Shown: positions 2,431-22,137 of the stretch, piece by piece
How positions within the stretch are numbered: the stretch's first letter is position 1
Layout of the letters: every line of letters starts with the position of its first letter
Assembly: GCA_963752595.1 (NCBI GenBank)
Contig: CAVVYZ010000016.1
Coordinates: 1-64,000, forward strand
Direction of reading: 5' to 3'
Origin: an uncultured delta proteobacterium
Lineage (GTDB): Bacteria > Desulfobacterota > Desulfomonilia > UBA1062
Length of the DNA: 64,000 bases
The notes under the pieces: generated by a model
What the model was told of the DNA's origin: nothing
Database searches by the model: none
Seen by the model: only the letters and a program-made list of their open reading frames with translations
Position numbers and translations under genes: made by a program

Positions 2431-2533
2431 GCCCCTTCCTCAATATGCCCTTTCAACAAGTGGTGATCTACAAAGTAGCACCGTACATTTCTGGTATAAT
2501 CGCTTTAGCGCTCCAAGGTCAATGAAAAGCTAA

Positions 2534-2803
2534 ATTGCCTATAATGCCTTGATCCAGACGGGCATATTCCCTAATGTTATTATGGAGGACACCGGCCTGT
2601 GGGAGCCTTGGACCAACGAGAGCATCGAGGAAGCCCTTGCGGATGTAAAACGCAAGCTCGGTCTGATTGATGAGAATGCCCACGACGGATTTATCCGCGA
2701 TCTTCTGGAGCGCAGGCTCGTCTTTAAGGAAGGTAACTACGTCTGGCCCAGGGGCATCCGTTCAGCGCTTGTGTACTGGGATGTGGCGAGGAATGCTGTT
2801 TGA
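2534..2803 (+). pseudogene. C-terminal fragment of a probable SAM-dependent methyltransferase-like protein
   Basis: Reads IAYNALIQTGIFPNV...SALVYWD directly after a stop codon. Resembles the C-terminus of methyltransferases found near metal-uptake genes. No N-terminal domain upstream. Confidence 0.45.
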
Positions 2804-2845
2804 TCGGCAGAGAATATCAGTAAAAAATAGAAGGAGGATGAGAGC

Positions 2846-3058
2846 ATGTTGAAAATCAGTGCGCGGAATGTTTTGAAGGGTAAGGTAAAAAAGATCACCC
2901 CCGGTGCGGTCAATTCCGAGGTGATCGTGGAATTGCCCGGCGGTTCCGAAATCGTTTCCATCATCACGAGGGAATCGGCCGAGTCAATGAAAATTGCTGT
3001 GGGCAAGGAGATCGCCGCCGTGATCAAGGCTTCAAGCGTCATGCTTGCTGTAGACTGG
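2846..3058 (+). CDS. Molybdenum-pterin-binding (Mop/TOBE, molbindin) protein; stop codon apparently lost, ORF runs to 3175
   Basis: MLKISARNVLKGKVKKITPGAVNSEV...VSIIT...AVIKASSVMLAVD is the classic ~68-aa molbindin. AGGAGG RBS upstream. Confidence 0.88.
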
Positions 3059-3059
3059 A

Positions 3060-3087
3060 AAGCTGCTGAAAGATTTTTCAGCAGCTT
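3060..3087. terminator. Hairpin between convergent genes, probable terminator
   Basis: aagctgctgaaa-gatt-tttcagcagctt, perfect 12-bp stem directly after the molbindin domain. Confidence 0.6.
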
Positions 3088-3198
3088 ATCCGGCAACAGT
3101 ACCTTGCAGAAATGCAATGACCCGGCTGCGGACTGTTGCCAGGTCAAGGGAAGCCATATCGACAATTCGATATAGGCAAGAATCGTCAAGGAGAGAGA

Positions 3199-3957
3199 TC
3201 AGACAAGAGGTATTCCGGAACGGGGATCGCTGAATCCCCATTGTTTGATATCGACGTCGTACTGGGTGGCGGAAAGAAGCGTTCCGCAGCATACACGATC
3301 TCGGGAAGGAGGCGTGTGGATTTCAGCGGTGAGACGATCGGACAAATCATCCATGATCCAAGTGGGGATCCGGTCCCGCTCAGAGGGGTAGATAAATCCG
3401 AAGAGGACAAAATAATTGAAGAGGATACGCCAGTTCGGGTCGAAGCGGTAGAGCAGGCGCTGCCAATCCATTTGATCGGCGTATTTGAGCAGGATGTGTG
3501 CAATATCGGCGCCGTCATAACGGTCTCGTGTCATGACGAATGCTTTGGACCATATCATCTCCTCAGGAGGGATAAATTTAACCGGAAACTCGAGGATCAC
3601 CCCTTCAGAGGCATGGGTGAACCACTCCTCATCCACAATGGCAATGCCATTGGCGGAACCGAAAATCACATCGACCATGTCATCGTTATGAAATGCCTTG
3701 CCGAGCCAGATGCCATCCGTCAGCTCGGTTCTATACCCGGCTTGCGAAAACGCATTGAGGATGCCGTCTATATCCCGCGGTTGGACGAAGATATCAAAAT
3801 CCTTGGTATCCCGCATGATCCCGGTATAGCATCCGAGGGCATACGCACCACCGACAAGATACGGAATAGCCGAATCACGAAGTGCGGTGAGCACCTGATA
3901 GTAAAACTTCCGTCTCATGGGGTTGAAACTGGTTTTATCCAAAACATATGGCTGCAT
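3199..3957 (-). CDS. Nucleotidyltransferase family protein (Pol-beta superfamily)
   Basis: YLVGGAYALGCYTGIMRDTKDFDIF (GG...DxD) motif; WSKAF...RDRYDGAD. Confidence 0.85.
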   Translation of the reverse strand: MQPYVLDKTSFNPMRRKFYYQVLTALRDSAIPYLVGGAYALGCYTGIMRDTKDFDIFVQPRDIDGILNAFSQAGYRTELTDGIWLGKAFHNDDMVDVIFGSANGIAIVDEEWFTHASEGVILEFPVKFIPPEEMIWSKAFVMTRDRYDGADIAHILLKYADQMDWQRLLYRFDPNWRILFNYFVLFGFIYPSERDRIPTWIMDDLSDRLTAEIHTPPSRDRVCCGTLLSATQYDVDIKQWGFSDPRSGIPLV

Positions 3958-9087: not shown

Positions 9088-10000
9088 TCAGGATGCGATG
9101 TTGATTACGACGCTATGATGAAGCAAGCGATCAAGGATCGCCGTGACGACGACCTGGTCGTGAAAGAGCTCGGTCCAATCGGTGAATGCCTTGTTGGATG
9201 TCAGGATAGTGCTGGCCTTCTCATAGCGGTTGGCAACGAACCGGAAAAAAAGATTGCATTCCTGCCGGTCGATGGGCGTGTAGCCGACTTCGTCAACGAC
9301 CACAAGCGCCGATTTGTAATAGCTTCTCCCTCTGCCGGAGCGGCCTGTCTCGTGGTCTTTCCTGAGTTTCCCGATGAGGTCCTCCATGGTAGTGAAGTAC
9401 ACGCTTAATCCCGACTGGCAGGCTTTCACCGCTAAAGCTACGGCCAGATGAGTCTTGCCCACCCCAGGAGGACCCAGGAAGATCACGTTCCCCCTCTGGC
9501 GGATGAAGGTCAGGTCGAACAGCGACATGACTTTCTGCCGGTCAAGGCCAGGCTGGAAGGTGAAGTCGAACTCGTCGATGGACTTGATGAAGGGAAGCCC
9601 CGAGATCTTCAGCGTGGTTTCCACCCGGCGCTGCTCTTTCTGGGCCACTTCCTCTTCGAGCAGGTCATCGAGGAAGGAGAGATAGCTTTTCCCCTGTTCC
9701 TGGGCTGTATGAATAACGCCATCGAGAATTTCCCGAATCCGTGGGAGCCTCAACCGGGTGAGGTTGGCTTCGATCCTCTCGAATACCAGGGTATCGCTCG
9801 ATATCGTACACCCCGCTGCATGGGCATAGGCGGACACAGGCCTGGTCTCAACATCCATATCATACCGGGGTTTCATCGGTGAGATGGTCAGCTTTGCCCG
9901 ACCCTTTGCCGGTCTGCCATGATGGTATTTCCTGCCTGAGCAGGGACCGATGGCGACGCACCTTCCTTCTTGTTGTATGGCAGGAACCACCCACGGCCCG
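9088..10000 (-). mobile_element. istB: IS21-family remnant: short istA 3' end and nearly complete istB ATPase truncated at the C-terminus
   Basis: DEFDFTFQPGLD, GPPGVGKTHLA, VVDEVGY, RYEKASTILTSN, AILDRLLHH. Upstream VETRPVSAY resembles an IstA C-terminus. No intact transposase. Confidence 0.85.
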
Positions 10001-10004
10001 CCGG

Positions 10005-10164
10005 CCCGGATAGAACTCCGGATATCCAAGGACAATGATAAATGGACAATTCCGCTCACGTAAGATATCAAGCCCCTGTCTCACGAGAGCCGATCCGATT
10101 CCCTGCCGTTGACGATGCGCACATGCGGAACATCTTCCGGTCCCTCAATTCGTATTGTGATCAT
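10005..10164 (-). pseudogene. GNAT N-acetyltransferase (YhbS-like) remnant with internal deletion and 3' truncation
   Basis: GGAG RBS and MITIRIEGPEDVPHVRIVN joined out of frame to RQRQGIGSALVRQGL...IIVLGYPEFYP, then IS21 sequence. Confidence 0.7.
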
Positions 10165-13802: not shown

Positions 13803-14094
13803 TCCATACCTCCCTTTTATTGAGCCACGTCGATAATCAATTCCCTAATCCACAAAAGCACAGACGACCCTCAGTCCACCGTCCCTAGCCGTCCTATCTC
13901 ATCGCTTCTTTCCTCACACAGTACCCCCCCCAACCTACTCAGCGCAACAGCCCACAAGCCTTAGTTCCCTCAAGCAACCTACCCGCCACGGTGCACGTCT
14001 CTAAAGTGAGTCACCTTTTATTTAATTATACCAGGCAATATAAAAACTTGCAAAACCATCAATACCCATATCTTTGATAGCTATTTCCACCCCC

Positions 14095-14330
14095 ATAGTG
14101 CGGGCTCGACCTTGCCCCATCTTTGGCCGACCGGTTCATCCGGGATCTCTCCCTCGATTACGGCCCGGTACTTCTCCTCATGCCCTTCGGATTCCACCTC
14201 ACGATGGACACCCTGCCCTCCGGTCTTTCAACCGGCCGGCGAGGCATTACCCCCGCTTTCGGATATGGCACCCCTCATCCGAGCGCCAGAGGGACTTGAA
14301 CCCTCCTGATTTATGCGCTGCCCAGCGCAC
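14095..14330 (-). mobile_element. Group II intron 5' remnant (inner intron), truncated, no RT ORF
   Basis: - strand begins GTGCGCTGGGCAGCGCAT (GUGYG boundary) and carries domain-I-like sequence AGGGCAGGGTGTCCATCGTGAGGTGGAATCCGAAGG. The 3' boundary is approximate. Confidence 0.75.
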
Positions 14331-14687
14331 ACTATGCCCTCTGCTGACTCCTGCATGACGGTCAGGTCGGATCTCTCCTCCCTCAGTTCATCTTCAAACA
14401 TCATGCAGATCTCCCGGGGTAAGACACAGAGCTTTCTCGCGCGTAAGCGCCGGATTTATAAAACGTACACAATTCACGGATGGAGGACTTCGTTGTCACG
14501 TACCGACTCGTCCCGTGTACGTCACACCTCTTATCCGGCTCCTGTTCGTCGCCCCTTAGCTTTTGGATTGGACTTCCTCCAGACCTCACCTCACGATGAC
14601 GCCCTTGCCCTTCTCCTAGCCTTCGGCTCCGTTTATACCTGGCGCGAGGACTCCCACCTCGCTAGCTCTGTGCCATGCCCGGCACAC
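14331..14687 (-). mobile_element. Group IIC-type intron 5' remnant (outer intron) inserted in an attC site
   Basis: - strand begins GTGTGCCGGGCATGGCACAGAGCTAGCGAGGTG, then GGGCAAGGGCGTCATCGTGAGGTGAGGTCTGGAGGAAG, TCTTACCCCGGGAGATCTGC and AGTCAGCAGAGGGCATAGT. Inserted directly after the attC hairpin. Confidence 0.8.
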
Positions 14688-14747
14688 ACGTTTCGCATCA
14701 GCGGCGCGGGCGGCAGCCCGCGTCCGTCTGCATGCGCCGGGTTAGAC
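14688..14747 (-). repeat. attC site A (R' box interrupted by the intron)
   Basis: - strand GTCTAAC-ccggc-GCATGCAG...CTGATGC-gaaac-GT|intron. Confidence 0.85.
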
Positions 14748-14748
14748 A

Positions 14749-15261
14749 TTAGCTTCTCATCCGACCAATAAGTAACTCCATCTCACGAAGCCAGCTTTCT
14801 AAGTTGTCAAAGTAGTCGCCAGGTATTTCTTTGTGGGTTTTCGGATGCTTGAATGCCGTTACCCCGTCGTCTTCACCGCCGGCATAGAAAACCAACGGGA
14901 TTCCCGCTACATGGCTAACATGGTCACGCATTGCCTTTGCGTGTGACAGCCATGTCGAGTTGTCTTGTCCCAAGTTATAGAGCTCGGTCAATTTGGGACT
15001 CACGCTCTCCTTTGCCTTCATCGCATTTCGCATATGCCCAAGCGTAACGTTCTCCGGCTTAAGTCCGCACCCTAGTTCTTCGTTTAGTTCCTGACACAAT
15101 GCCGAGTATGCGCCAAAAAGCTGAGCAAAGAATGCTTCTTGATGAGCCCGTTCGAAGTCGTGTCCTCGCCCAGGAATTTCGCATTCCCGTAGTTCCTGTA
15201 AATGAAGCCGCGCATACCGCATTTTTGCGTCTGTGCGACTGGTTAGACTTTTTTGCGTCAT
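14749..15261 (-). CDS. Integron cassette protein, HEPN-like (R-x4-H)
   Basis: Helical protein with AMRDHVSH motif, flanked by attC sites. Confidence 0.65.
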   Translation of the reverse strand: MTQKSLTSRTDAKMRYARLHLQELRECEIPGRGHDFERAHQEAFFAQLFGAYSALCQELNEELGCGLKPENVTLGHMRNAMKAKESVSPKLTELYNLGQDNSTWLSHAKAMRDHVSHVAGIPLVFYAGGEDDGVTAFKHPKTHKEIPGDYFDNLESWLREMELLIGRMRS

Positions 15262-15268
15262 CTTTAAT

Positions 15269-15327
15269 CCCTAACGCTGGGATCACCGCGCGGCTATGCC
15301 GCGTCGGCCTGGATGCCCTTGTTAGCC
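15269..15327 (-). repeat. attC site B
   Basis: GGCTAAC-aaggg-CATCCAGG...GTGATC-ccagc-GTTAGGG with a GC-rich central hairpin. Confidence 0.85.
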
Positions 15328-15331
15328 TTTT

Positions 15332-16166
15332 TTAAGATATTCCTTTCGAAACCACTCTGATGGTTTAAAACGAACAATATTTTCTTTTAAGAGTTCTGGT
15401 TCAAGCCCATATTTTGAACCAACCACTAAGATCAACCGTTTGGCTGTACCTGGTGGTAGATCAAGACTTTTATCTACTTCACGAAAATGTATAAATTACC
15501 ATTGTAGTAGTTGGACTCTCTTTTTTGTATACAGTGTAGGATAAGTAAGAAACTCATGTGCTTCTTTTAATAAGATTCGACTCAATAACTTCGCATAGTT
15601 CATCATCAGAGTATCCTGCATATCTGCCACGATAAAACTGCCGTTCAACTAGATCAGTATCAATTATTTTAACTTTATTATATTTTGGTATGCGTTTCAT
15701 TATATTCGATGCACGAAATGATGAAATTACACCAAACCCAAATTGTTTAATTAAGCCTTCAAAGAGTAGTTTCAGATCGATTGCCTTGCCAATTGATAAA
15801 GCTTGTAAACGGTCAAGTGGAGAAGGTAGATCTGAGAAAATCAATCTCAGGAGCACAAAGAGGATATATTGCAAGCTGATCCTTTCTGGCCCTTAACAAA
15901 AGCACCAATCTCAAACCACAACCAGTGGCCTTTCGATCGAAAGTGGCGTTATAATGACAATTACTGCTTGAGGATATCAGCTTTTCTTCAATAGCCGCAA
16001 GCCAATCTTTAGAAGCACCTATTGCCCCTGGGGAACTTGTGCAGAATACATTAATTCCATCTGCAAAGACCTTCACAATTTCAGCTTGTAGGACAGATGC
16101 AAACTCGCCATCGGAAGAGGCATGACTGATAAATAGATTTGGCTTTTCTATTTGATGTTGTGGCAT
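15332..16166 (-). CDS. Integron cassette: TIR-domain protein, several frameshifts
   Basis: LFISHASSD...VFCTSS...WLAAIEEKL is a TIR N-terminus. Continues through ORF 15554-15874 to a stop at 15332. Confidence 0.7.
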
Positions 16167-16185
16167 ATCAAACCTTCCTTTGTTG

Positions 16186-16283
16186 GGCTAACGCTACGGA
16201 TCACCGGCCACCAGGGCTAGGTGAGCGATTAAGTTTGCAAGGACGACTAGCCCTGGTGGTCCGCGTGCAACCGCTTGTTAGCC
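16186..16283 (-). repeat. attC site C (98 bp)
   Basis: GGCTAAC...ccaccagggctag/ctagccctggtgg 13-bp stem...GTTAGCC. Confidence 0.88.
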
Positions 16284-16293
16284 AAGAATAATC

Positions 16294-16677
16294 TTAAGAA
16301 AGCAAATTTTTTATCTGTTCATCAATATCTGCAATTGCTCTGCTCATCTCAATTGTCATATTGAAAATTAACTCTTTTTTGATTTTATCAGAGGAATCAT
16401 CCTTATCTAAATACTCGTTATATAATTTGGCAGCTGCTCTTGGCATATGAACTTCTAGTTCAGCAGCAAACTTATTTGAGATTGTATCATTAGATAAACC
16501 TTCAATTAACATTTGAAGGACTTGTTCTTTTTTTTGTCCAAGTCTTATGCGCTCTTCCTTTAGATAAGCAATTTTTGTCTCCCGTTTCCAGTGAAAGTGG
16601 TTATAAATCAACTGTGCAATTGGTGAAATACTACCAATGAATCCACCGATGACAACTCCGATCAACGTTTCTGACAT
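16294..16677 (-). CDS. Integron cassette: hypothetical protein with N-terminal TM helix
   Basis: MSETLIGVVIGGFIGSISPIAQLIY followed by a helical region. Low GC, flanked by attC sites. Confidence 0.7.
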   Translation of the reverse strand: MSETLIGVVIGGFIGSISPIAQLIYNHFHWKRETKIAYLKEERIRLGQKKEQVLQMLIEGLSNDTISNKFAAELEVHMPRAAAKLYNEYLDKDDSSDKIKKELIFNMTIEMSRAIADIDEQIKNLLS

Positions 16678-16691
16678 ATAGGCACCTTCCT

Positions 16692-16755
16692 GGCTAACGT
16701 TTGGCATCACCAGCGCGGGCGATAGCCCACGTCTGTGTGGATGCCATGGTTATAT
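16692..16755 (-). repeat. attC site D
   Basis: ATATAAC-catgg-CATCCACA...GTGATGC-caaac-GTTAGCC. Confidence 0.88.
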
Positions 16756-16760
16756 GATAT

Positions 16761-17474
16761 TTATGTTCCTTCTATTTTAACTATATGTTTGGGCTCTAGA
16801 GTCTTTCCTCTCAGATCGATAGAATAGCCATCGAATAGGTCGCCAGAGTCATCTTCAGGGTCCAGAAAATTGAAGTAGGCACGTAATACACAGAAGGGAA
16901 AGTAACCTCTCTCACAAAGGAGAGAATATGGTATAGCACAATGAATTATCAGGGGGGCCGACATGGCATGGTCAACACCAACATGATAGCCAGCACAACC
17001 TAACAGGATTTCAGGGCCATGAAGGCAGAAATGATTGTCCGGCTTCTTTGCACACTTGTAACTAAGAAAGAAAAAGGGTCCTGGACTTTGTTGAGATCGG
17101 TATACTAAGGTACTTTTCCCATTTGCTGTTTGGTTACTGTCAGCAGAAAGTCTCACTGTTTCTTCAGATAGAGGAAGGATGCCCTTTTCGAGAAAAACCT
17201 GTTTGTCACTGTGACGCGTGCAATGATAACCCATGATCCTCATATCATTAGCAACACAACTTTGATCCCATTTATTTAAAGAATGATCTTCTGTGCAACC
17301 GAGACAATGTGATACATCAGCTATCATTTGATTGGTTATACCCCAGAATCCAGACGAAGCTGTTTTTCCAGAGGTCTTCAGGTCAGCATACAAGTCTGCA
17401 GGTATGAACCAGTCTTTGGAAATCTGGTCTGTCGCGACCTCAATGGACTCTCGATCATCAATATCTATGATCAT
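16761..17474 (-). CDS. Integron cassette: hypothetical protein, possible ADP-ribosyltransferase-like fold
   Basis: 237 aa between attC D and attC E; GYHCTR...FLEKGILPLS motif. Confidence 0.65.
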   Translation of the reverse strand: MIIDIDDRESIEVATDQISKDWFIPADLYADLKTSGKTASSGFWGITNQMIADVSHCLGCTEDHSLNKWDQSCVANDMRIMGYHCTRHSDKQVFLEKGILPLSEETVRLSADSNQTANGKSTLVYRSQQSPGPFFFLSYKCAKKPDNHFCLHGPEILLGCAGYHVGVDHAMSAPLIIHCAIPYSLLCERGYFPFCVLRAYFNFLDPEDDSGDLFDGYSIDLRGKTLEPKHIVKIEGT

Positions 17475-17482
17475 CTTCCCTC

Positions 17483-17539
17483 ATATAACGTGGGCATCAC
17501 CGGCGGCTGTAAGCCGTCCGGTGGATGACCTGGTTATGC
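17483..17539 (-). repeat. attC site E
   Basis: GCATAAC-caggt-CATCCACC-ggacggcttacagccgccg-GTGATGC-ccac-GTTATAT. Confidence 0.88.
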
Positions 17540-17545
17540 ATTTTT

Positions 17546-18438
17546 TTAAAGTAAAAACGAGTCAGACACTTCAACAATATTCAAGCTTTTAAGTAAACCA
17601 GACTTACTTTTATTTTTAAACACTCTGCAATAAATAAAGCCTTCCTGAGAATACCTAACTCTTTGTGTATTTGCTAATAGGCTATTTGCAATTAAAGACA
17701 CACTATAATCAGTTTTTGCATCACCAAAGAGTGTGAACGGAATAGGCCGACCTTCTTCGCTGATATATATTCTTCCTTTAAATGTATTACTGTTATAACT
17801 TGAGACTCTACCAGTTATCGTTGTTGGTTTTTGGCTTGTCTCGGTATACGAAATATATTCATAGGTTGATTCATTGAATTGGCTACCAATTATTAAATCA
17901 CCACCAGGTGTATTAACGCTTAGTGATCCTTCTGTTGCAGTTTTTTGGGCATATACAGGCCTATGCATGTCTTTAATTGGTTTTAAACATTTTTCAGAGA
18001 GAGCATCTAATCTGTGTTGATATAACACAGGTATTTTTGATCCAGATTTTTTAATTTCCTCGTATTTTTCCCTAATGATTTTTCATAATCCACATGAAAC
18101 CCTAAAGTTTCAGATATTACATAATCATAAGCTGAATATACCAGATGACCTAATGGAGTATTTTGGGGGGCAGTTCCAAGTTGATAAAAAGTACTTGCAG
18201 CAATAGCAAGAACTGCTGTCATTTTCCAGCTTCCTTCTTCAGAAGGAAGGGCCAAAATATTTGCCCCTCTTAGAGAAGGAGCTTGAGTTATAATTTCATC
18301 ATGTAAGACAAGCTGGGTGGTTAAGGCCAAGGATCGATGTAAGCCTATTAGTGCTTGTGCTACATCATATAGATCAATTTCGTTTTCATCAGCTTGCCCA
18401 CCTGAAAACGAAAGGGTGAATTTTAATAACTCATTCAT
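17546..18438 (-). CDS. First cassette: hypothetical protein split by a frameshift near 18030
   Basis: ORFs 18007-18438 and 17546-18028 overlap on the same strand. AGGAG RBS, low GC, followed by attC E. Confidence 0.7.
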
Positions 18439-18531
18439 ACCATCTCCTCTTTAACGTCTCATGATCAATCAACAAAAAGATCATTACTAGTGATTCTTAA
18501 GCTAACATTTACTATACTGCAAAATTGAAGC

Positions 18532-18555
18532 AAAAGTCGCTATATAGCGACTTTT
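18532..18555. promoter_or_regulatory. Perfect 24-bp palindrome upstream of the cassette array
   Basis: aaaagtcgctat|atagcgactttt. Confidence 0.5.
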
Positions 18556-18648
18556 ACGGAAATATTACAATAACATGATATTCTTCTTATATCTACTTTT
18601 GAGTATTCGCCATGTACATTTTCCCCGCCGCTCCCATATCGCGTCATT

Positions 18649-18843
18649 TCACCCCACATTATTCAGAAACAGCCTTTGAATCCGCAGGAAGCGGTAGCAG
18701 TAGGTGCAGGTTTCCACATAGCAGGATTCGGGGTTGCCGTGGGAATTGAACAGGCATTGGTCTTCACCGCACTGGATGCAGCCCAGGCATTCCCGGCATT
18801 TGTCAGGGTAGTTCTCTCGATCGTCGTCAGGCTTCGCGGTCAT
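18649..18843 (-). CDS. Small Cys-rich protein
   Basis: 64 aa with CRECLGCIQC...C...C...CTYC, directly downstream of the Stv-like gene. Confidence 0.5.
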   Translation of the reverse strand: MTAKPDDDRENYPDKCRECLGCIQCGEDQCLFNSHGNPESCYVETCTYCYRFLRIQRLFLNNVG

Positions 18844-18884
18844 GGCTCGCGGTGTATCCCGGAGCTGGAGGCGACCATTCCTGA

Positions 18885-19382
18885 TCAGGACCGGCAGAAG
18901 CTGCAGTAGATGTTCTTATAACCCTTCTTCTTGATCGCGCTCTGCTCGAAGATGGATGCCAGCCTGATCTCGGATGAAAACCACCTGTTGCGAGGCGACA
19001 CAATATCGCACCCGCTCGATGTGATCCATTGCTCATACTCCGCGTATGTCTCATAATCGTTCGACCCGCTGCCTGCGTATTTCTGAAGGTGGTAATTGAA
19101 CACTTCCTTCTGGAGCAGCGGGTGGAATCCGCTCGCCTTCATCAGGTCGAACCGGCCCTTGTTTTTCCCTATTATACCTTCAAGGACATCTTCGACCTGG
19201 GTCATGGTGCTCTTCCCGTGTATGGAGCAGAACCAGATCACCGGGTTGCCTACGCCCTTGGGAGGCCATGCGATCTTTTCGTCCGGCCCCGGCTTTCCGC
19301 CGTGGGCTGAAACGATGAGGTTCGTGTTGCCGGGATTGGTAAACAGATACATTGTGCCGCCGCCGAGTGAAATCTTTGCCAT
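18885..19382 (-). CDS. Stv-domain-like ('putative adhesin') protein
   Basis: IVSAHGG, NYHLQKY, DIVSPRNR and YKNIYCSFCRS motifs; GGAGG RBS. Confidence 0.65.
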   Translation of the reverse strand: MAKISLGGGTMYLFTNPGNTNLIVSAHGGKPGPDEKIAWPPKGVGNPVIWFCSIHGKSTMTQVEDVLEGIIGKNKGRFDLMKASGFHPLLQKEVFNYHLQKYAGSGSNDYETYAEYEQWITSSGCDIVSPRNRWFSSEIRLASIFEQSAIKKKGYKNIYCSFCRS

Positions 19383-19432
19383 GCCTTTCCTCCTTGCCTT
19401 CCGGAATATGTCTCACAAAAATCAAGCTGCCC

Positions 19433-19468
19433 AGGCCCCCTCTCCTGCTGAAGGCAGGTGGGGGCTTA
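19433..19468 (-). terminator. Hairpin after tssH
   Basis: aggcccccTctcctgc-tgaag-gcaggtgggggctt inverted repeat. Confidence 0.4.
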
Positions 19469-19485
19469 AGTCGGATTATTCCGAC

Positions 19486-22137
19486 CTATTTAATTTCGAA
19501 CTTGAAGCCCGCTCCGTCGAGCAGGACCTTGACCTTCTTGATCTGCTCGCCCTTTGCCATGCGTGAAAGGATCTCGCGCGACATCTCGGGCAGCAGGGTG
19601 TTGGTCATGATGTGGTCCGCGTTGCGGGCGCCGCTGTCCACCTCGGTGCACCGGCCGGCAATGGCATCCACGATGTCTTCGCCGTAGATTCGAGCACGCA
19701 TTTGCGGTTTTCCATCATGCGTTTCTTGATGCGGTTGAGCTTGAGCCTGACGATGAGCTGCATGATCTTGTCCGTGATGGGGTAATAGGGCACCACCTTC
19801 AGACGCCCCAGGAATGCGGGTTTGAAGTGCTTGAGCAGGTCTGGCCGGAGCATCTCGGCAAGCGCTGACGGGTCGGGCCTGGTCTCCTCGTCGGCGCAGA
19901 CCTTCATGATGAGGTCGGTGCCGAGGTTGGAGGTGAGGATGATGAGCGTGTTCTTGAAGTCGATCTCGCCGGCCCTCGCCGTCTTCCAGCGTGCCCTTGT
20001 CGAAGACCTGGAAGAACAGCTCCATGACATCGGGGTGGGCCTTCTCGACCTCGTCGAGGAGCACCACGCTGTAGGGCCTGCGTGCGCACCGCTTCGGTGA
20101 GCACGCCCGCCCTCGCCGTATCCCACATAGCCCGGGGGCGAGCCTTTGAGGCCGGAAACCGTGTGGGCTTCCTGGTATTCCGACATGTTGATGGTGATCA
20201 CGTTCTCCTCGCCGCCGTAGAGCAGGTCGGAAAGGGCCAGCGCGGTCTCGGTCTTGCCAACGCCGCTCGGGCCGACGAACATGAAGACCGCCGTCGGTTT
20301 GGACGGGTCCTCGATGCCTGCATGGGCGGTCTGGATCATCTGGGCGACTGAGCGCAAGCGCGTGATCCTGGCCGATGATCCGCTCCCCCAGGAGGTTTTC
20401 CATGTTGAGCACGGTCTCGATCTCGTCGGCCAGCATGCGGCCCGTCGGGATGCCGGTCCAGCCCGAGATCACCTCGGAGATGGTCTGGCTGTCCACCGCC
20501 ATCTGCACCAGAGGCTCGTCGCCCTGGATCTTCTGAAATTCCTTTTCCAGGGCTTTCAGGTCTTTCTGCTTCTTTGGCAGGTCCTTGCGTCTTTGGGTCG
20601 GCGGCGTGGAGTTCGTGGATCTCTTTGCGGACCCCGATGATCTTGTCCGCCGTTTCCATTTCCGCCTGCCACTTCTTGTTCAGATCCTCCAGGCGCTTTT
20701 CCGATCTCTTTCTTCTCGTTCTCCAGGGCCTTGACCTTGCTCTGAATGGTCGGTGCCCATGAGCGTCTCTTTTTCCAGGGCTTTAAGCTCGCTTATCGAT
20801 ATGGGCGATCCGCCTGGTGGCCTCTTCCACCGCAGGCGGGCTCGTGGTCAGGCCGATGGCCACCCGGGCGCAGGCGGTGTCGAGCACGCTCACCGCCTTG
20901 TCCGGAAGCTGCCGGCCCGAGATATAGCGGTGGGAGAGCCGCACCGTGTCGTCGAGCGCCTCGTCCGTGATCATGACCTTGTGGTGGTTTTCAAGGAAAG
21001 GGGCGATGGCCCGCATCATGACCAGTGCCTTTTTCTCGTCCGGCTCTTCCACTTTGACCACCTGGAAGCGCCGGGCCAGGGCCGCATCCTTTTCAAAGTA
21101 TTTCTTGTATTCGGCCCAGGTGGTGGCGGCGATGGTGCGAAGCTCGCCGCGGGCCAGGGCCGGTTTGAGCAGGTTCGCCGCATCGCCCTGGCCGGCCGCT
21201 CCGCCTGCGCCGATCAGCGTGTGGGCCTCGTCGATGAAGAGGATGATGGGCACGGGCGATGCCTTGACCTCGTTGATGACGGATTTGAGCCGGTTTTCAA
21301 ACTCGCCCTTGATCCCTGCTCCTGCCTGGAGCAGGCCTAGGTCGAGCGTACCGGATCTCCACGTCCTGCAGAAGCAGGCGGCACGTCGCCCTGGGCGACC
21401 CGCAGGGCAAAGCCTTCCACCACCGCGGTCTTTCCCACGCCTGCCTCGCCGGTCAGGATGGGGTTGTTCTGCCTGCGGCGGATGAGGATATCGACCATCT
21501 GGCGGATTTCGAAATCGCGGCCCAGCACCGGGTCGATCTCGCCGTTCTTTGCCTGCTCGGTGAGGTTGATGGTGAACTGGTCGAGGGCCTTGGTGCCTGC
21601 GGGTTTCGCCTCGCCGGGCGCGCCCGGCTCAGAACCTGCCTGCGCAGCAGCGCCGCTGTCTTCGGCCGAGCCTTTGACGATATCCATCAGGCTTTCCTGC
21701 AGGGTGTCGACCTTGATCTTCTTGAAGGCATCCGATTCGGAAGCGAGCATCCGCGCGGTCTGGTCGTCACGGAGCAGCGCCAGGATGATATGACCCGACC
21801 GGATGACCTGCGCCTGGTAGTCGATGGATGCGAGCATCCATGCCTCCTGGATCATCTTCGGGATCTGCGGCGAGAAGACCGGCGTGCGGGCATTGCCCGT
21901 CTTGAACCCTTCGAGTGCCCGGGCCAGGTCTGCGGTCAGGCGGTCCGGATTGATCTCGAAATGCCTGAGGATCTTGTGAAGGTCCGTATCCTGGAGGTCC
22001 ATGAGCTTGAGCAGGAAGTGCTCGAGGTCCACCTCATAGTGGGTGTGCGACATGCACAGCCCCGCGGCGGATTCCAGTGCGCCCCTGCAGGTCGTGTCGA
22101 GTTTGGCGATGAGGGTCTTCAGATTGTTTACAGCCAT
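19486..22137 (-). CDS. tssH: T6SS ATPase TssH/ClpV (multiple frameshifts)
   Basis: ClpV N-terminus (LKTLIAKLD...HYEVDLEH), [49 protein letters not shown]. Confidence 0.93.

Follow-up and report, generated by a model that had tools for sequence, protein, structure and literature searches.

Clusters of attC sites lacking an integrase (CALINs) are more numerous than complete integrons. Where they originate and how active they are is debated, partly since attI sites cannot be predicted. In integrons, the integrase (IntI) inserts circular cassettes at attI via attC × attI recombination; according to the available text of Cury et al. (2016; PMC4889954), on which these statements rest, for the majority of integrons the attI is not known and a search for it is not possible, and in half of the CALINs an IntI is encoded elsewhere in the genome. 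The present work concerns an array of this kind on the minus strand of a 64,000-nt stretch (the window) of contig CAVVYZ010000016.1 (C16) in the genome of an uncultured delta proteobacterium (assembly GCA_963752595.1; G000), next to a type VI secretion system (T6SS) locus. A sequence-only reading had described a plain CALIN, which holds for the missing integrase gene and for an attC count of at least two but not for the head of the array, where the attI docking site is retained. The array is a CALIN by definition and would work like an integron platform without an integrase gene; it appears to be an attI-headed satellite platform that likely received its cassettes in trans through an IntI whose gene lies at another locus, at present the one on contig C20.

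As in the CALINs of Cury et al., the array is small, contains at least two attC sites, has no intI nearby and coexists with an IntI encoded elsewhere. Unlike them, it has kept a full attI, and the four origins listed in the available part of that paper include no retained, reloaded attI. Another attI-headed CALIN, the only one in print among searchable papers (subscription journals being mostly outside coverage), belongs to the Shewanella prophage M16-3 (PMC9892861). In the accessible text, that case comprises a single cryptic prophage with both loci within 40 kb and no turnover data, whereas here separate chromosomal loci are concerned, which are conserved between species and carry different cassettes. 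A fixed locus, CALINs at conserved positions and possible mobilization in trans have likewise been described for the sedentary integron of Xanthomonas with its inactivated intI (bioRxiv 2025.06.18.660453, available part); there, strains with the same intI lesion usually share arrays, whereas here an orphan attI linked to pyrG precedes eight different first cassettes in eight loci. In attG insertion (SALINs, single attC sites lacking an integrase; bioRxiv 2022.09.11.507474, available part), IntI also inserts cassettes away from its own gene, but attG sites are unlike attI in sequence and structure, whereas the head of the present array is almost identical to an attI. What the present locus adds is the orthologous and population-level evidence of cassette turnover, together with mirror-image sets of integrases and attI sites in two species. 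The attI site is known to single-base precision, is found at several loci without an integrase gene and lends itself to comparison across species and populations; a single short site and a single enzyme would therefore suffice for a direct test of whether CALINs still capture genes.

The array and the attI site at its head

The five attC sites (14688-17539) and all open reading frames (ORFs) of the array lie on the minus strand. A profile derived from 10 attC sites located on other contigs, with the window sites excluded, recovered attC 1, 2, 4 and 5 at E values of 1e-9 to 3e-5 (20–34 bits) and matched attC 3 weakly (E 0.06), while 20 shuffled windows gave a single match of at least 8 bits and a maximum of 10.6 bits. 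The bottom strands of all five sites fold into bulged hairpins (z −2.7 to −5.5). With R''/L''/L'/R' boxes, the hairpin fold and co-oriented ORFs ending at R'', the locus has the make-up of an integron array. The five sites listed in the sequence-only reading are confirmed, four of them whole and the fifth cut by an intron that starts at 14687, after the GT of its R' box. The exact complementarity of R'' and the upstream R' was also reproduced for cassettes 2, 3 and 4 (ATATAAC/GTTATAT, and GGCTAAC/GTTAGCC twice); at least three such matches in five would be expected with P ~0.0005 if R' were drawn randomly from 80 heptamers of related arrays. Mismatches are found in cassette 1 (GCATAAC vs GTTAGCT) and cassette 5 (GTCTAAC vs GTTAGGG). 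No intI was detected on C16 (no PF00589 or TIGR02249 match and no tyrosine recombinase), in agreement with what had been read from the window, and the locus qualifies as a CALIN rather than as a complete integron, in which intI adjoins the array. None of the five cassettes has a copy elsewhere in G000.

The first cassette ATG lies 211 bp beyond the last upstream ORF, close to the 200 bp estimated earlier. An attC hidden at 18506-18440 was considered and rejected, as an L'/R'-like end is present but R'' is absent. The position near 18500, where a promoter had been placed, is instead that of the attI site. When the genome was searched with BLAST, window positions 18559-18495 were identical to C20:131336-131270 at 65 of 67 nucleotides, which is the sole long non-attC match near the head. 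The core of the site is 54/55 identical to the attI of the complete integron on C20, where it heads a 14-attC array and faces the sole intact IntI of G000 (TIGR02249 458 bits, cut-off 265). The search for intI outside the window thus returned an intact gene, and this gene, together with the copy of its attI at the array head, supports the earlier proposal of an integrase acting in trans. Homologous sites are found ~190 nt upstream of intI in four relatives (G005, G006, G007 and G011), whose IntI proteins are 81 % identical to that of G000 and form a single clade with it. A profile of the relatives' attI sites matches the window site at E 2e-11, with the next unrelated match at E >4; the site is accordingly homologous to those located between intI and a first cassette, by which attI is recognized.

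Scanning for the attI motif yielded 72 loci (60 in metagenomes and 12 in genomes), with titled records almost all from deltaproteobacterial metagenome-assembled genomes. In 44 of the 54 loci having a detected attC, which are not independent as the same strain recurs across metagenome samples, the heptamer after the motif exactly complements the R'' of the first attC; the crossover is therefore placed at G/TT, corresponding to 18506/18505 in the window. With regard to the palindrome in the site, a comparison of 21 variants, in which the central 10 nt were fixed by the search pattern, showed that arm positions 6–8 are often unpaired without compensation. An obligatory hairpin was consequently set aside, and a palindrome bound by a protein would fit the repeat as well.

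The sister genome and the turnover of first cassettes

Genome G004, from another species of the genus, shows synteny on both sides of the locus at 77–87 % DNA identity. In G004, an attI site without intI is located 95 nt after the same Cys-rich ORF (90 nt in G000), with 49/55 identical positions between the two attI sites and 58/96 in the spacer preceding them. In the comparison of cassette content, a check named in the sequence-only reading, this orthologous attI is followed by two attC sites and by cassettes unrelated to those of the window, none of them common. One of the G004 array genes weakly matches HEPN AbiU2. The third array gene (L099:6017-6793) is class D beta-lactamase-like (Pfam transpeptidase, E 2e-38); it starts at an R' box, and no attC was found after it.

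The window attI is closer to that of C20 than to its G004 orthologue, and the nucleotides following it, GTTAGCTT, are the start of C20's first cassette (8 nt in common), whereas the 40 nt upstream match G004 at 29/40 and C20 at 24/45. Gene conversion from C20 across the crossover would explain both the closeness to the C20 attI and the C20-type 8 nt after the crossover. That the window attI was recently homogenized in this way has slightly less than an even chance of being right; the alternative to conversion would be strong selection combined with the loss of a first cassette.

Further platforms are distributed over the source genome. The array on C13 is headed by a diverged attI copy (profile E 0.65, with an exact 12-nt core and a first heptamer that fits its attC), the array on C5 has a matching first heptamer but no recognized attI, and the arrays on C2, where intI is deleted, and C26 are headed by a second attI type, which in G004 adjoins an IntI of another lineage. 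At the C20 orthologue of G004, intI is missing and this second attI type is present, and the intact IntI of G004 is located at the orthologue of G000 C2; the two genomes thus mirror each other in their two attI types and two IntI lineages. The orthologous loci C18 and C4 of G004 and C20 and C2 of G000 carry different integrase and attI types, and their sequences suggest platform swapping.

A second orphan attI, located after pyrG, occurs in G002, G005, G006, G007 and G020, and three of these genomes (G005, G006 and G007) each possess one attI beside intI and one orphan attI. The pyrG-linked group mentioned above is made up of the loci in these five genomes plus those on three metagenome contigs, all sharing the 25 nt upstream; in all eight loci the heptamer complement is exact. 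A second pyrG-linked group has 3 first cassettes in 6 loci, while intI-adjacent attI sites have 11 different first cassettes in 17 loci. One pyrG-linked orphan (L157) and seven truncated-intI platforms (L134, L142, L151, L162, L167, L172 and L173) share the same first-cassette start, a sequence identity that suggests cassette exchange between the two kinds of platform.

Probable loading in trans and the alternatives

According to the reading that is considered likely, the common ancestor of G000 and G004 would already have had an attI at this locus but no intI beside it, and cassettes would then have been inserted at G/TT 18506 and excised by an IntI from another locus. Transcription of the array would start at a local promoter directly in front of attI and would not come from the T6SS. 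The last attC would later have been broken by a group II intron in the top strand and the far end of the array would have been deleted, while the attI itself would be maintained by selection and perhaps by conversion. Upstream of the array in G000, no promoter reached the 9/12 threshold of the scan, and the candidate in Table 1 was picked by eye, although the stretch of G004 matching this region contains a 10/12 promoter site. Present-day activity of the site is less sure because an insertion sequence (IS) lies in front of intI: the stretch between intI and attI on C20 (L002 ~2450–3820) contains an IS-like element bounded by 16-bp terminal inverted repeats, whose ORF presumably encodes a transposase.

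Several points weigh against loading in trans. The IS-like element on C20 may separate intI from its promoter or reduce its expression. Unlike the heads of the C20, C13, C26 and G004 arrays, where the heptamer does complement the first R'', the window copy has GTTAGCT past the crossover, which does not complement the R'' of cassette 1 (GCATAAC). The one intact IntI of G004 is of a different lineage (52 % identical) and goes with the other attI type, and the cognate integrase of the G004 orphan attI was not found in that genome, which is 91 % complete. Differing first cassettes can arise through excision alone, and platforms with a truncated intI are less variable, with only 4 first cassettes in 13 loci. 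The recurrence of strains in the motif scan and the quality of G000 (84 % complete, 6.8 % contamination) point in the same direction.

A broader possibility, which is put forward tentatively and with somewhat less confidence than the conversion, is that the genus runs a distributed integron, in which attI sites serve as free-standing, selected landing pads at fixed addresses (the T6SS end, pyrG and others). Such sites would be kept alike within a genome by gene conversion, would outlive and even swap their integrase and would still capture cassettes in trans, so that many 'dead' CALINs would be live.

It is unlikely that the array is instead the relic of an integron whose intI once stood here and was lost separately or late in each lineage, the arrays having been built in cis before the loss and being frozen now. 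Loss of intI is indeed common in the genus, as illustrated by the deletion on C2, the 5' stubs in 13 loci and the C20 orthologue of G004, and it is among the origins of CALINs in the available text of Cury et al. (PMC4889954); furthermore, the last attC and two of the cassette genes are no longer intact. However, C16 contains neither an intI fragment nor the boundary motif of other platforms (see below). The distance from the Cys-rich ORF to attI is alike in G000 and G004, so that one common intI loss is simpler than two, and the cassettes have become wholly different since. Moreover, clpV, tssF and tssB are likewise frameshifted, and many of the frame breaks are therefore probably assembly errors.

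Improbable, although adjacency to the T6SS is conserved in both species, is an attI kept at the T6SS end for the co-expression of captured effector or immunity genes. In G000, clpV, a Stv-domain gene, the Cys-rich ORF and the array all lie on the same strand, and the product of cassette 2 may weakly resemble the fold of ADP-ribosyltransferases (ART), treated below. On the other hand, TssF is present in 15 of 60 relatives, and at eight of the nine T6SS loci inspected attC and attI are absent up to 18 kb beyond tssF; the ninth is that of G004, whose site lies just outside the 18 kb fetched. Of 52 family genomes, 14 carry the Cys-rich ORF, and in 11 of the 13 besides G000 no T6SS DNA lies within 1.5 kb of it; it adjoins T6SS DNA only in G000, G004 and G011 and is followed by attI only in G000 and G004, attI being absent from G011 although clpV and the ORF are present there. 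In G004, the T6SS operon and attI are separated by an FHA gene on the opposite strand, and the attI palindrome scores terminator-like in G000, though not in G004. No cassette matches a T6SS family in Pfam, most cassettes being unnamed, and the weak matches are of anti-phage type (TIR-like in the window, HEPN AbiU2 in G004).

Read-through from the T6SS tail, as proposed in the sequence-only reading, and an effector bank are thus not supported. What remains of the proposed link is the adjacency itself, which is not an assembly accident because it is common to G004; it is positional only, an address shared by two species, and the T6SS is probably just a neighbour of the array. The analysis gives a new T6SS mechanism no support, and no paper on links between integrons and T6SSs was found by title or abstract start, with subscription journals mostly outside coverage. 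The Stv-domain gene that follows clpV (18885-19382) has a close homologue in the same place in G021, while a different small gene is found there in G011.

A recent transfer of attI and cassettes as a block from C20 by rearrangement, with inactivity since, is very improbable and largely refuted by the attI at the orthologous spot in G004. The near-identity of the attI to that of C20 and the 8 common nt past the crossover would fit such a transfer, and IS elements occur in and near the C20 integron; however, the upstream 40 nt follow G004 and not C20, no IS end is seen at the junction and no cassette is shared with C20. The idea that the head is a chance look-alike in an attG secondary-site CALIN, or that contigs of different organisms were binned together, can be dismissed almost entirely: attG insertion is a demonstrated route to CALINs (bioRxiv 2022.09.11.507474, available part) and G000 has 6.8 % contamination, but the match to the relatives' attI profile stands far apart from any unrelated one, and a binning artefact is unlikely since orthologues of the C16, C20 and C2 loci occur together in one genome, G004.

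Cassette genes, the intron and other elements

Table 1. Features of the array and its immediate surroundings in the window
Feature	Position	Strand	Evidence and remarks
Cys-rich ORF, 64 aa	18649..18843	-	Upstream neighbour of attI; no Pfam match; not T6SS-specific
Candidate cassette promoter, weak	18567..18595	-	TAGATA-17-TATTGT with TG before -10; 8/12; by eye, putative
Orphan attI	18500..18559	-	24-bp palindrome 18555-18532; conserved TGCAGTATAG box; crossover G/TT at 18506/18505
Cassette 1 gene, DUF7946 + DUF7947	17546..18438	-	Pfam PF25678 E 5e-30, PF25679 E 3e-12
Cassette 1 gene frames	18438-18007 and 18028-17546	-	Two frames
attC 1	17483..17539	-	Held-out profile E 3e-5; fold z -5.5
Cassette 2 gene, 237 aa	16761..17474	-	Unnamed family; 114 homologues
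attC 2	16692..16755	-	Held-out profile E 1e-9
Cassette 3 gene, 130 aa	16294..16686	-	No convincing Pfam or PADLOC match
attC 3, 98 bp	16186..16283	-	Fold z -5.2; weak profile match; foreign type, differs from the attC family usual in this genome
Cassette 4 gene, TIR-like N-terminus	15328..16166	-	Several frames; PADLOC SpbK E 0.0015, ThsB E 0.025, both weak
attC 4	15269..15327	-	Held-out profile E 1e-7; 90% similar to a C13 attC
Cassette 5 gene, 170 aa, DUF6586-like	14749..15261	-	PF20227 26.9 bits vs cut-off 27
attC 5	14688..14747	-	Held-out profile E 1e-8; interrupted after GT of R'; intron junction
Group II intron, 5' part, 357 nt	14331..14687	-	Inserted in attC 5, top strand; Rfam RF02001 98 bits (14600-14424)
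Second intron-like 5' fragment	14090..14330	-	Starts GTGCGC; interrupts the first; weak RF02001 E 0.31; extent approximate

The earlier statement that each attC follows a single low-GC gene stands for part of the array (Table 1): four cassettes have a GC content of 36–43 %, compared with 59 % in the T6SS, but cassette 5 has 51 %, and cassettes 1 and 4 are each broken across at least two reading frames. Cassette 1 is probably a single gene carrying an indel. The sequencing runs listed comprise two DNA runs at shares of 0.05–0.06 and none of RNA, with no coverage over 16400-19800. The predicted structure of the cassette 2 product (pLDDT 93) gave its best Z scores, 5.6 and 5.2, to ART-fold chains, while Foldseek returned no match at E 0.001; the weak fold resemblance suggested by this model is a lead only.

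The intron in the last attC lies on the same strand as the cassettes. It is 93 % identical to a copy on C2 and shares 76 % DNA identity with the intron of pR148, which occupies the same GT/T site. In the canonical case, group IIC-attC introns use the attC bottom strand (PMC3001079, available part), whereas the window intron resembles the top-strand group IIC intron of Enterobacter cloacae (cited in PMC7923331, available part) and that of pR148 in its cassette strand and in the GT/T of R'. It differs from them in that only a 5' fragment is left, and the copy on C2, itself without an ORF, contains a second intron coding for a reverse transcriptase (RT). The label of class C is taken from the available part of PMC7923331 and not from an RT tree. 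As the complete C2 copy ends before TATGCAT, the target is GT/T on the top strand. Across 13 intron loci, an attC-like hairpin that ends in GT precedes eight distinct 5' junctions but not one intron that is more distant, and three loci yielded no junction; the RT of a relative is 54 % identical to LtrA of pR148. By its GT/T site and sequence kinship, the window fragment belongs to the top-strand pR148 type, and it is neither a bottom-strand group IIC-attC intron nor a functional one; RT and domain V/VI are absent here, and RF00029 finds no match between 13700 and 14800. What is left is debris, and it deprives cassette 5 of a recombination site of its own. The second intron-like fragment, which interrupts the first, has no further copy in G000.

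The C2 copy (C2:224224-226856; L004 10225-12857) forms a twintron, in which an ORF-less top-strand attC intron hosts another group II intron, RT-coding (ORF of 440 aa), near its domain V/VI. The best promoter-like site of the region (14054-14025, TTGCAA-17-TATAAT, 10/12) lies directly beyond the intron fragments and upstream of an ORF of 137 aa.

Other mobile and structural elements were observed at the platforms. About 100 nt beyond the intI stop, a motif of the form TTCACC-N7-GACGGAGTCTG is found at C20:133969, C2:219677, C26:45934 and in many relatives; it marks the outer platform edge with both attI types and at different loci, is kept even after intI loss and is absent from the window. 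The motif also occurs upstream of several orphan sites, where it was considered as the coding 3' end of intI, but IntI ends ~100 nt earlier and the motif is non-coding. Three attC sites without R'' (C20:120677, C20:125974 and C2:224177) follow the same element end near a 347-aa transposase-like ORF, and we take this element to be akin to the attC-targeting elements of the IS110 family. An ORF for IstB (IS21 family) is located at 9088-10071 of the window, with a matching stretch on C5 and C29, and the hairpin scan also indicated CRISPR-like repeats at C1 ~309300–310800.

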